Source: Oscillospiraceae bacterium (lineage in GTDB: Bacteria > Bacillota > Clostridia > Oscillospirales > Ruminococcaceae). From it: DNA of 64,000 nucleotides. This document shows, piece by piece, positions 48,629-51,623 of this stretch; the first letter of the stretch is position 1; the number at the start of each line of letters is the position of its first letter. Location of the stretch: the NCBI GenBank assembly GCA_045121595.1, contig JBGVGI010000003.1:63610-127609 (forward strand), read 5' to 3'. The notes under the pieces were generated by a model. The model was not told the DNA's origin, searched no databases, and saw only the letters and a list, made by a program, of their open reading frames with translations. Position numbers and translations under genes: made by a program.

Positions 48629-49678
48629 TTATTCTCCTTTTGCTTTTTCACAAGCTTCAAAAAGTCCGTTTATGTAAGCCGCACCCAAAGCTCTGTCGTA
48701 AAGTCCGTAACCGGGTTTACCCGTTTCGCCCCAGATCATTCTGCCGTGGTCGGGACGAACGTAGCCGTCAAAGTTGTTATCAACGAGTGCTTTTACGATT
48801 TTATACATATCAAGGCTTCCGTTTTTGGAAAGATGTCCTCTTTCTTCAAAACTGCCGTCGGGGAAAAGCTCTACCTGACGGATATGCATAAATGCAATTC
48901 TGTCCATCTTTGCATATTTTTCGACGAGTTTTTCCACGTTGTTAAAACAAGCACAACCGAGTGAGCCTGTGCAGAGGCAAAGGGAGTTCGCAGGAGAATC
49001 CACAACCGAAAGCAGTCTGTCGAGATTTGCTTCGTTTGTAACAATTCTCGGAATTCCGAAGATAGAGTATGGCGGGTCATCGGGGTGAATTGCCATTCTC
49101 ACGTCGCACTCTTCTGCAACGGGGATAATCTTTTTAAGGAAGTATTCAAGGTTTTCCCAGAGTCCTTCCTCACCAATCTTTGAATAAGCGTTGATAAGAC
49201 CGCGTACCTCGTCCTGAGTATAACTTGCATCCCAACCGGGGAGATTGATATCGTCAGTGAGAGGGTCTAAGCCTTCAAGCTGACTTTTATACATAACAAG
49301 GCTTGTAGAGCCATCGGGAAGCTCCTTATCAAGCTGAGTACGGGTCCAGTCGAAAACGGGCATAAAGTTATAGGTGATGCATTTAACGCCGTATTTTGCA
49401 CAGCGGCGGATGTTTTCACAGTAAACTTCAATAAGCTCGTCGCGGTTTTCAGAACCAAGCTTTATATCCTCGGGAACAGGTACCGACTCAACGATATCAA
49501 AAAGCATACCGTTTGCTTCAACCTGATTTTTCATTTTGAGAAGGCTTTCTTCAGGCCATACTTCGCCCGGTTTTACGTCGTAAACGGCACTTACAACCGA
49601 ACGCATATTGGGAATCTGTCTTATGTACTCTAAGGTTACGGGGTCGGATTCTCCGTACCAGCGGAATGACATTTTCAT
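48629..49678 (-). CDS. uxuA: Mannonate dehydratase
   Basis: FRWYG, YNFMPVFDW, AIHPDDPP, RPDHGRMIWGE, YGLYDRALG. Confidence 0.97.
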   Translation of the reverse strand: MKMSFRWYGESDPVTLEYIRQIPNMRSVVSAVYDVKPGEVWPEESLLKMKNQVEANGMLFDIVESVPVPEDIKLGSENRDELIEVYCENIRRCAKYGVKCITYNFMPVFDWTRTQLDKELPDGSTSLVMYKSQLEGLDPLTDDINLPGWDASYTQDEVRGLINAYSKIGEEGLWENLEYFLKKIIPVAEECDVRMAIHPDDPPYSIFGIPRIVTNEANLDRLLSVVDSPANSLCLCTGSLGCACFNNVEKLVEKYAKMDRIAFMHIRQVELFPDGSFEERGHLSKNGSLDMYKIVKALVDNNFDGYVRPDHGRMIWGETGKPGYGLYDRALGAAYINGLFEACEKAKGE

Positions 49679-50859
49679 AGGTTTTCTCCTTCAAACACGG
49701 TTTTACCCGCTACAATAGTATATTTAACGTTGATATCATCGTCAAAGATAACAAAGTCGGCAAAGTAACCTTTTTTGATTTCACCCATTTTTTCTTCTTT
49801 CATAATGGATGCGGGAACTTTGGTTGCCATCTTGACTGCATCAACGATGGGAGCTTCAGCTAATTTTACCATATTTCTTACCACTCTGTCCATTGTGGCG
49901 ATACTTCCTGCAAACGCAGTGCGGTCGGGAAGCTTTGCAACGTTGTCCTCGATAATGGTATCACTTCCGCCGTTGGGAGCTTTTACGATAGTTCCTTCGG
50001 GGTAGTCACACGCCGCCGAACGGATAGAGTCGGTGATAAGAGCAATTTTATCCACGGGTTTAAGCTTATAGATAAACTGTAGAAGTTCTTTGGGCAAATG
50101 GCATCCGTCACCGATAATTTCGATAGTCAGATCGTCATAAAGAAATGCCGCATCGTTAAGACCTGCATAGCGGAACGCATTCTTTCTCATAACGGGAGTT
50201 GTACAGGAATAAAGGTGAGTGATATGGGTAAAGCCGTATTTAATTGCTTCCTTTGCACCGATACAGTCAACCTCGGTATGACCCATAGCCGCCAAAATTC
50301 CGTTTTCCGAAAGTGCTTTTGCAAAATCATAAGCACCCTCGAGTTCGGGAGCCGCCGACCATCTGCTCAAGATATCTTTATATTTATCGATAATCTGCAT
50401 ATATTCTTTGGGGTCGGGGTTACGAACGTATCTGGGGTCCTGAGCACCACGCTGTGACATCGCAAAATAAGGTCCCTCAAGGTGAAGCCCCATAAGTCTT
50501 GCGCCGTTATGACTTTCATTCATAACGTTTTTATACGCTTCACAGCTACCGACGATTTCCTCAAAGCTACCCGAGCTTACAGTAGGATAAAGTGCAGTCG
50601 TACCGTGTTGTGCGTGAAGCACTGCAGGAGTTATAAAAGCTTCCTTTGTGCCGTCAATGAACTCAAAACCGCCACCGCCGTGGGTGTGAATATCAATAAA
50701 ACCTGCAGAAAGGTAGTTACCTTTTGCATCAATCACTTCGTCACAAGGCAAGTCCTTGTCGGTGATTTCGGTGATAACGCCGTCTTCAAAGTAAACGCTT
50801 TCGCCCGTTTTAATTTCGTCACCAAGAACGATTTTTGCATTTGTAATTTTAGTAATCAT
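49675..50859 (-). CDS. nagA: N-acetylglucosamine-6-phosphate deacetylase-like amidohydrolase
   Basis: DIHTHG, HLEGP, GH, THLY, LITDS; substrate may be non-canonical. Confidence 0.85.
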   Translation of the reverse strand: MITKITNAKIVLGDEIKTGESVYFEDGVITEITDKDLPCDEVIDAKGNYLSAGFIDIHTHGGGGFEFIDGTKEAFITPAVLHAQHGTTALYPTVSSGSFEEIVGSCEAYKNVMNESHNGARLMGLHLEGPYFAMSQRGAQDPRYVRNPDPKEYMQIIDKYKDILSRWSAAPELEGAYDFAKALSENGILAAMGHTEVDCIGAKEAIKYGFTHITHLYSCTTPVMRKNAFRYAGLNDAAFLYDDLTIEIIGDGCHLPKELLQFIYKLKPVDKIALITDSIRSAACDYPEGTIVKAPNGGSDTIIEDNVAKLPDRTAFAGSIATMDRVVRNMVKLAEAPIVDAVKMATKVPASIMKEEKMGEIKKGYFADFVIFDDDINVKYTIVAGKTVFEGENL

Positions 50860-51623
50860 ATAAGTTTACCGCTTTCGTTGTCACAGTAGATAATAACACT
50901 GCTGTGATTTTTCATAATTGTTGCGGGACATTCTTCGGAAACGTCCATCATAACGGTATTTTTAACAGCCTCTGCCTTTGTTTTTGCAGGAACCATACAG
51001 AAAAGGTGGTTACCCTTAAACAAAGTCGGAACTGTCAAAGTGAGTGCAAACTTCGGCACGTCATCGATTTTTGCAAAACAACCGTCATTAACTTGCTGGT
51101 TACGGCATTTTTCGTCAAGCTCAACTTCCTTGATGATTTTTGTATCGTTAAAATCAGCAACACCGGGGTCGTTGAAAGCGATATGACCGTTTTCACCGAT
51201 ACCAAGACAAACGATATCAACGTTTACGTCGATAAGTTTGCCGTAACGCTCACATTCTGCCTCAATGTCAGTTGCGCAACTGTCAATAAGGTTAACGGAT
51301 TTAAAAGGCACTTTATCGAAAATATCCTTTTTAAGGAAGTTTCCGAACGCCTGAGGTGCACCCTCGGGAAGACCTATATATTCGTCCATATGAAATGCGT
51401 TGATTCTTGTCCAGTCGATATCTTTAAAAAGGATAAGCTCAGCCAAAGTATCAGACTGGGACGGAGCCGCCGCAAAAATCATATTGATTTCCTCTTTTTC
51501 GTTTAAAAGTTTCACGATTTTATCAGCAATATCCTTTGCTGCAGAAGCCGCCATGCTTCTTCTTGAATCGTAAACTCTTACTTCCGCCTTACCTGCGGTA
51601 ATATTTTTAATAACTGCCATCAT
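50856..51623 (-). CDS. nagB: Glucosamine-6-phosphate deaminase-like protein
   Basis: HMDEY and LGIGENGHIAFNDP, but AAAPSQ replaces the usual ATGSSP/PTGGTP loop. Confidence 0.8.
   Translation of the reverse strand: MMAVIKNITAGKAEVRVYDSRRSMAASAAKDIADKIVKLLNEKEEINMIFAAAPSQSDTLAELILFKDIDWTRINAFHMDEYIGLPEGAPQAFGNFLKKDIFDKVPFKSVNLIDSCATDIEAECERYGKLIDVNVDIVCLGIGENGHIAFNDPGVADFNDTKIIKEVELDEKCRNQQVNDGCFAKIDDVPKFALTLTVPTLFKGNHLFCMVPAKTKAEAVKNTVMMDVSEECPATIMKNHSSVIIYCDNESGKLI

Follow-up and report, generated by a model that had tools for sequence, protein, structure and literature searches.

The canonical enzymes of amino-sugar catabolism, N-acetylglucosamine-6-phosphate (GlcNAc-6-P) deacetylase NagA (EC 3.5.1.25) and glucosamine-6-phosphate (GlcN-6-P) deaminase NagB (EC 3.5.99.6), are represented by solved structures from Bacillus subtilis (2VHL and 2BKV, respectively) and Escherichia coli (2P50 and 1DEA), with a further NagB structure from Streptococcus mutans (2RI1). 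In canonical NagA, a His-Arg pincer (H-R-(E/D)-P-G) is contributed by the neighbouring subunit. The 6-phosphate is contacted by Asn212, Ala213 and Arg219′ in Mycobacterium smegmatis NagA (PMC6016474) and by Ser37, Thr38, Lys194, Arg127 and Arg159 in S. mutans NagB (PMC8369159), in agreement with a preliminary description of the DNA studied here, which had stated that the loop residues of NagB and the Asn of NagA touch the 6-phosphate in characterised enzymes. That DNA, a 64,000-nt stretch of an Oscillospiraceae genome (contig JBGVGI010000003.1) referred to below as the window, encodes a NagA-fold and a NagB-fold protein (NagA-like and NagB-like; 25–31% identical to solved structures) next to the hexuronate enzymes UxuA and UxuB. 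Judged from sequence and predicted structure, the best explanation is that the two are active enzymes belonging to a widespread, uncharacterised paralog pair in which the pocket for sugar C6 has been rebuilt. Their substrate is probably not a 6-phosphate, and in this operon it may be an amino-uronate, a tentative assignment that we place somewhat short of an even chance.

Several other described systems resemble parts of this locus. The genome encodes the last four enzymes of the Ashwell hexuronate pathway (UxaC, UxuB, UxuA, KdgK and Eda), with KdgK and Eda outside the operon, and the four would convert fructuronate to pyruvate and glyceraldehyde-3-phosphate. Unlike in that pathway, the NagB-like protein would provide the entry by deaminating a 2-amino-uronate, not UxaC by isomerising glucuronate. 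AgaA and AgaI of E. coli, which serve N-acetylgalactosamine-6-phosphate, are likewise a second, substrate-shifted pair of the NagA/NagB type for another amino sugar. The substrates of the Aga enzymes are 6-phosphates supplied by the phosphotransferase system (PTS), and the resulting tagatose-6-phosphate is handled by a kinase and an aldolase. The score of the NagB-like protein with the AgaI model, by contrast, is only 71 bits (cut-off 271). WbpB and WbpE (WlbA and WlbC) are the UDP-N-acetylglucosaminuronate (UDP-GlcNAcA) 3-dehydrogenase and 3-aminotransferase in the biosynthesis of 2,3-diacetamido-2,3-dideoxy-mannuronate (ManNAc3NAcA), and are thus biosynthetic enzymes with UDP-sugar substrates. 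Capsules, teichuronic acids, O-antigens and archaeal glycans commonly contain GlcNAcA, the corresponding N-acetylmannosaminuronate (ManNAcA) and N-acetylgalactosaminuronate (GalNAcA), as well as 2,3-diamino forms of these sugars. The Gfo/Idh/MocA-type (Gfo) oxidoreductase and DegT aminotransferase genes upstream of our pair form the same family pairing as WbpB and WbpE, a likeness at the level of families, and the reversed reactions would give GlcNAcA from a 3-amino-uronate. Lastly, the glucuronide-specific P2B11 cassette (PDB 8TDI) demonstrates that 3-keto cleavage cassettes exist for sugars with a negative charge at C6 (bioRxiv 10.1101/2024.03.25.586180). As in these cassettes, the NagB-like clade is most commonly accompanied by two Gfo-type oxidoreductases and a xylose-isomerase-like TIM barrel, with weak similarity between the clade's Gfo and P2B11 Oxido1 (E 4e-10); in contrast to them, the operon in the window has no TIM-barrel gene, and no NagA/NagB-type genes have been described with such cassettes. 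Neither a catabolic route for amino-uronates nor an unphosphorylated route of the NagA/NagB-like kind was found in the searchable literature.

Residues were compared by alignment with E. coli NagB and NagA (NC_000913) and with clade members from other species (73 NagB-like and 56 NagA-like sequences). The NagB-like protein carries the motifs IFAAAPSQ (residues 49–56), HMDEY (78–82) and GHIAFND (146–152), the last of which continues as GHIAFNDP. The preliminary description had drawn attention to AAAPSQ and to the retention of DEY and GHIAFN; these features are present in the open reading frame and are near-invariant in the clade, the sequence F/A/A/A/P that replaces Thr-Gly-Gly-Thr (TGG(T/S) in canonical NagB) being found in 72 of the 73 members. 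Asp72, Glu73, Tyr74, His143 and Lys208 (E. coli numbering) are retained in all 73. The catalytic Asp72 and His143 correspond to Asp80 and His147 of the window's protein, Lys208 corresponds to Lys216, and Glu148 is represented by Asp152 throughout the clade. Within the phosphate site, by contrast, Lys208 is the only residue of the set to be retained: the loop reads AAAPS, and E. coli Arg172 aligns with Gly181, with the invariant Asn170 and Phe174 in register. Also unlike canonical NagB, the lid has a four-residue insertion with an invariant Cys173-Arg174, and an invariant Glu144 stands at E. coli position 140, which is the position of S. mutans Arg127 and is Asn both in E. coli NagB and in this genome's canonical NagB. 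In the alignment, Asp180 is a further gain in the pocket region.

The pairing of the loop differs by tool, with HMMER matching ATGGTP to AAAPSQ (which puts Ser at the position of Thr44) and MAFFT matching TGGTP to FAAAP. The HMMER register is favoured because an intermediate group of NagB proteins reads STGSSQ at this site. Members of this group (L097:2123-4072, L098:7459-9411 and L099:7499-9420) are 35–39% identical to the AAAPSQ clade, have an STG(S/A)SQ loop, have the Glu, the NDP motif and a Cys-Lys-Gln-Gln lid insertion in common with that clade, and are partnered with the same THLYS-type NagA-like enzyme; they may represent an evolutionary intermediate. The AlphaFold2 (AF2) model of the NagB-like protein (predicted local distance difference test score, pLDDT, 95.6) has the NagB/Pgl alpha-beta fold, its top Foldseek matches being 3HN6, 2BKV, 1DEA and 2RI1 (template modelling scores 0.79–0.86). 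A lactonase function, as suggested by the relationship to Pgl, was rejected, since the motifs DEY and GHIAFN are those of deaminases and Foldseek places Pgl structures far lower. The PDB holds no member of the AAAPSQ clade, the best match there being B. subtilis NagB at ~31% identity, and neither a characterised member nor a published description of the clade was found in the searchable literature.

The motifs of the NagA-like protein are DIHTHGGGG, HLEGP, QRGAQ (136–140), GHTE and THLYSCT (214–220). As in canonical NagA, the binuclear-type metal site is kept: the ligands HxH, Glu128, His194 and His215, together with the catalytic Asp277 (equivalent to Asp273), are present and invariant in the clade, and the AF2 model (pLDDT 96.3) has the amidohydrolase fold. 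THLYSCT, which had been picked out in the preliminary description, lies where canonical enzymes read THL(F/Y)NAM, with Ser218-Cys219 in place of Asn-Ala; Ser replaces the phosphate-contacting Asn in 54 of the 56 NagA-like members, and the Ala is mostly replaced by Cys. The His-Arg pincer is altered as well. Here, H-R-(E/D)-P-G has become an R-x4-R-x-x-G hairpin in which four residues are inserted, the His is lost and two Arg residues are invariant, one of them aligned with E. coli Arg227 and the other an addition. The other alteration proposed for this protein, RGAQ in place of KGAH, did not hold up, because the characterised GlcNAc-6-P deacetylase of B. subtilis (2VHL) reads AGAQ at the aligned position. 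As far as alignment can tell, the canonical phosphate contacts are lost in both proteins and the catalytic residues are intact. The rebuilt pockets point in two directions: Lys216 and the Arg-rich loop of the NagA-like protein would suit an anion, and Glu144 and Asp180 would suit a hydroxyl.

Canonical copies of both enzymes are encoded elsewhere in the same genome, NagB at C12:7131-7868 (with LATGSTP and ANARFF) and NagA on contig C26 (with THLFNAM and HRDPG). The NagA-like and NagB-like proteins are therefore true paralogs, as had been supposed. The NagB-like protein falls below every NagB equivalog cut-off (TIGR00502, 135.4 versus 236.9 bits; NF001682, 137 versus 528), and the NagA-like protein narrowly passes TIGR00221 (244.2 versus 225.65 bits) and fails NF008371 (180 versus 483). 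Thousands of relatives of the NagB-like protein are present in the protein database, many at ≥60% identity, and a scan of GTDB species representatives recovered at least 561 stretches with a confirmed relative. Neighbourhoods were counted in the best 80 of these 561 stretches (57–93% identity), which are mostly metagenome-assembled genomes of gut Clostridia, with Proteiniphilum, Petrimonas and other Bacteroidales. Of the 80 loci, 58 have the NagA-like gene adjoining the NagB-like gene and 36 have an AraC gene alongside the pair, and no kinase or PTS gene was found among the annotated recurrent neighbours, unlike the context of canonical NagA and NagB. Given the canonical copies elsewhere, the low NagB score, the loss of Arg172 and the lack of an observed kinase or PTS gene, the conclusion that the pair is not the cell's ordinary GlcNAc-6-P/GlcN-6-P set is well supported. 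A third, divergent NagA-family paralog is encoded at C12:243140-244294 (L085); it reads THCTNAT, has an eight-residue insertion in the Arg loop and scores 192 bits, below the NagA cut-off.

The operon in the window comprises nine genes, in the order Amidohydro_2, Gfo, DegT aminotransferase, Gfo, AraC, NagB-like, NagA-like, UxuA and UxuB, the last of the short-chain dehydrogenase/reductase (SDR) type. As in canonical nagA and nagB, the genes of the pair are adjacent and predicted to be co-transcribed; the NagB-like stop overlaps the NagA-like start by 4 nt, as does the NagA-like stop the UxuA start. For this arrangement we infer an amino-uronate pathway, substrate and every reaction step included. 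The NagA-like enzyme would deacetylate an unphosphorylated, gluco- or manno-configured N-acetyl-hexosaminuronate (GlcNAcA or ManNAcA), and the NagB-like enzyme would convert the product, by aldose-ketose deamination, to D-fructuronate and ammonia. UxuB would then reduce fructuronate to D-mannonate, which UxuA would dehydrate to 2-keto-3-deoxygluconate (KDG), and KdgK and Eda would complete the route, making the UxaC step unnecessary. The four genes would form a closed pathway to KDG because a NagB-type reaction on a gluco- or manno-configured 2-amino-uronate gives D-fructuronate, the substrate of UxuB.

Linkage between the pair and uxuAB recurs. UxuA and UxuB adjoin the pair in five of the 80 loci besides the window (L001, L023, L024, L045 and L071); the four genes are arranged in two different orders, and the loci fall at four separate, interleaved positions on the NagB-like tree. 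By a rough estimate, in which ~0.3% would be expected per lineage, this recurrence is far above chance for one given gene pair. In L045 and L071 the genes form a stand-alone operon (AraC< UxuA-UxuB-NagB-NagA) with unrelated flanks; each of these genomes has one UxuA and has Eda, and UxaC was not found in either with a Pfam model and a protein search (the completeness of the two genomes is not known). Because no UxaC was found there, UxuAB in these genomes has no known source of fructuronate except the neighbouring NagB-like enzyme. Across 300 genomes of the order (62 clade-bearing and 238 others; counts uncorrected for kinship), UxuA was present in 37 of the 62 clade-bearing genomes versus 102 of the 238 others, and UxuA or UxaC in 53 versus 128. 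Over the same survey, the clade occurred in 12/18 genomes with UxuA and without UxaC versus 25/121 with both (Fisher p = 1.5e-4, uncorrected for kinship). Residues specific to the uxuAB-linked members gave signals too weak to be of use (such as Cys253 and Arg146 of the NagA-like protein), over about four lineages. In the uxaC-less genomes, uxuA is flanked only by uxuB, eda, kdgK and unrelated genes, which is uninformative. A compact uxuA-(uxuB)-eda-kdgK module in several genomes of the order without detected uxaC was also observed (L121-L127 and L131; G037, G063, G138, G232, G245 and G271).

In the window's own genome, uxaC lies on another contig, in a uxaC-uxaA-uxaB-GH4-esterase operon, and not in the operon of the pair. 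The UxaC found here (C12:26713-27921; L095:6704-7924) is a short form of ~406–420 aa that also occurs in G303 and G305; it matches the Pfam model only at 3–187 and 279–464, in one open frame, with ~90 central residues absent.

Outside the uxuAB-linked loci, the neighbourhoods of the clade are varied. The arrangement found most often is AraC< Gfo(356 aa)-Gfo(290 aa)-AP_endonuc_2 TIM barrel-NagB-NagA (L005, L029, L032, L037, L038, L052, L063, L064, L078 and others), in which the 290-aa Gfo is a Rossmann half only and the TIM barrel is ~281 aa long. No transporter or kinase was found in this five-gene operon, which is present in many species of gut Clostridia. The TIM-barrel partner had no match in the PDB or NCBIfam, and in a PDB sequence search the Gfo partners matched only uncharacterised structural-genomics entries. 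The possibility that these TIM-barrel and Gfo proteins stand in for UxuA and UxuB was rejected, since genomes without UxuA mostly have the pair alone and L024 has both the 281-aa TIM barrel and UxuAB. A different module is found in Bacteroidales (L054, L055, L058, L059, L066 and L074), where a major facilitator superfamily (MFS) transporter is followed by NagA-like, NagB-like, Gfo, a PF16490 oxidoreductase, an ApbE-like protein and a second Gfo. The nearest relatives of this MFS protein are the GlcNAc carrier NagP and FucP/GluP; to our knowledge, carriers of the NagP/FucP type are known only for neutral sugars.

Taken together, several of these observations weigh against an amino-uronate substrate. 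The pair has uxuAB beside it in only five of the 80 loci, and 25 of the 62 clade-bearing genomes lack UxuA, nine of them lacking UxaC too, with the pair mostly standing alone there. As many of its contexts are free of uxuA, the clade overall has no fixed link with UxuAB. A single family accounts for eight of the 12 clade-bearing genomes with UxuA and without UxaC, and counted by genus the contrast is ~7/13. With UxaC encoded in this genome and no second UxuA besides that of the window, UxuAB may simply serve glucuronate. The gain of the invariant Glu144 and of Asp180 and the loss of two phosphate-binding Arg positions would fit a hydroxyl at C6 at least as well as a carboxylate, and the MFS neighbour in Bacteroidales hints at a neutral sugar. 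The 6-carboxylate put forward in the preliminary description is thus partly supported, by gene context (the translational coupling to uxuAB and the recurrence of this linkage) and not by residue chemistry, which does not single out a carboxylate. The co-occurrence of the AAAPSQ clade with uxuA, raised at the same time, has a similar outcome: the four tree positions and the enrichment in uxaC-less genomes are in line with it, and the locus and UxuA counts above are not.

The main rival, which we regard as possible but rather unlikely, is that the substrate is a neutral, unphosphorylated N-acetylhexosamine (HexNAc), be it free GlcNAc, N-acetylmannosamine (ManNAc) or a rarer HexNAc. A cassette for 3-keto glycoside cleavage would free the sugar within the cytoplasm, the free ketose would be phosphorylated later, and uxuAB would be adjacent by way of a glycan containing both uronic acid and HexNAc, or through operon fusion. 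This is what the commonest clade context, with its lack of kinase, PTS and uxu genes, would lead one to expect, given that Gfo and TIM-barrel cassettes split glycosides via 3-keto intermediates (bioRxiv 10.1101/2024.03.25.586180); the carrier in Bacteroidales loci, the clade-bearing genomes without UxuA and the invariant Glu and an Asp at the apparently remodelled C6 site are also in its favour. However, a neutral HexNAc leaves unexplained the stand-alone UxuA-UxuB-NagB-NagA operon in genomes without detected UxaC, the repeated independent recruitment of uxuAB, and the NagA-like loop that both retains and adds Arg, and these operons contain no ketose kinase. It is improbable that the two proteins are redundant isozymes of the ordinary GlcNAc-6-P deacetylase and GlcN-6-P deaminase, with a phosphate site built differently, from Lys216, Ser55, a helix N-terminus and lid Arg174 in the NagB-like protein and from the Arg-rich loop in the NagA-like protein. 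In favour of isozymes are the TIGR00221 equivalog score of the NagA-like protein, which is above the cut-off, the retention of Lys208 and of the conserved NagA Arg, the new invariant Arg of the lid, the Ser at the position of Thr44 under the HMMER register, the label glucosamine-6-phosphate deaminase that databases all give to such proteins, and a clade member as the only NagB-family match in some genomes of the order. On the other side, this genome and many others also encode canonical NagB and NagA. Isozymes would also have to be squared with the failure of the NagB-like protein at all NagB equivalog cut-offs, the clade-wide loss of Arg172 and replacement of the Thr/Gly loop, and the lack of a kinase or PTS gene among the annotated recurrent neighbours; Gfo, TIM-barrel, DegT and UxuAB partners would make no sense for a sugar 6-phosphate. 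Very unlikely, in our view, is another C6-modified or unusual amino sugar, such as a 6-deoxy-HexNAc (N-acetylquinovosamine, QuiNAc, or N-acetylfucosamine, FucNAc), a 6-sulfate or a product of the upstream module, with uxuAB as passengers. The Ala-rich, more hydrophobic loop, the highly varied clade contexts and the upstream Amidohydro_2-Gfo-DegT-Gfo genes, which suggest a diamino or keto sugar, are compatible with such a substrate, but the operon lacks downstream enzymes for 6-deoxy-ketoses or sulfo-sugars, and the tight coupling to uxuA would be unexplained.

In its fullest form, the amino-uronate reading would make the nine-gene operon a route by which (di)acetamido-uronic acids of bacterial and archaeal envelopes are converted to KDG through a previously undescribed, UxaC-independent entry into the hexuronate pathway, shared by many anaerobes of the gut, using WbpB/WbpE-type chemistry in reverse, an N-acetylhexosaminuronate deacetylase and a 2-amino-2-deoxy-hexuronate deaminase/isomerase; we consider this full version speculative and rather doubtful. 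If an amino-uronate is the substrate, a clade found in about one-fifth of the sampled genomes of the order and, among GTDB species representatives, in 561 or more stretches is misnamed glucosamine-6-phosphate deaminase/deacetylase, models of gut metabolism assign GlcNAc use to the wrong genes, and genomes with uxuA-uxuB-kdgK-eda and no uxaC are accounted for. Were the substrate a neutral sugar, a phosphate-independent NagA/NagB route would still be a novel variant of textbook amino-sugar catabolism.

All genes of interest in the window are on the minus strand, and their coordinates are listed in Table 1. The mechanical open reading frame of uxuB begins at a TTG at 48660, within uxuA (window 47782-48660); its true start is likely the ATG at 48626, which is preceded by GGAG and lies 2 nt past the uxuA stop. 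The hairpin downstream of uxuB is likely the operon terminator, and was not listed by an automated scan because its loop exceeds 8 nt.

Table 1 Features of the nagB-like/nagA-like operon and its flanks, in window coordinates.
Feature	Position	Strand	Basis or remark
Promoter-like site, best-scoring	56908-56881	−	Upstream of first operon gene
Amidohydro_2	55853-56752	−	Pfam/NCBIfam; upstream half of operon (52506..56752)
Gfo/Idh/MocA	54841-55851	−	Pfam/NCBIfam; upstream half of operon
DegT-type aminotransferase	53499-54827	−	Pfam/NCBIfam; upstream half of operon
Gfo/Idh/MocA, second	52506-53486	−	Pfam/NCBIfam; upstream half of operon
AraC-family regulator	51632..52468	−	Ends 8 nt before NagB-like start
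NagB-fold deaminase/isomerase paralog, 255 aa	50856..51623	−	Pfam/NCBIfam Glucosamine_iso
NagA-fold binuclear amidohydrolase paralog, 394 aa	49675..50859	−	Pfam/NCBIfam NagA amidohydrolases
UxuA, D-mannonate dehydratase	48629..49678	−	Family assignment; sole copy in genome
SDR-type UxuB, D-mannonate/fructuronate oxidoreductase	47782..48626	−	NF006132, 432 bits
Hairpin and T-rich tail downstream of uxuB	47712..47750	−	By-eye reading; candidate operon terminator

Just upstream of the putative operon promoter are genes for a MATE-family transporter and for a 458-aa protein without a family match (window 57000-59694). MATE genes also occur close to the pair in L071 and, in the genome that the window comes from, close to KdgK-Eda (L096).

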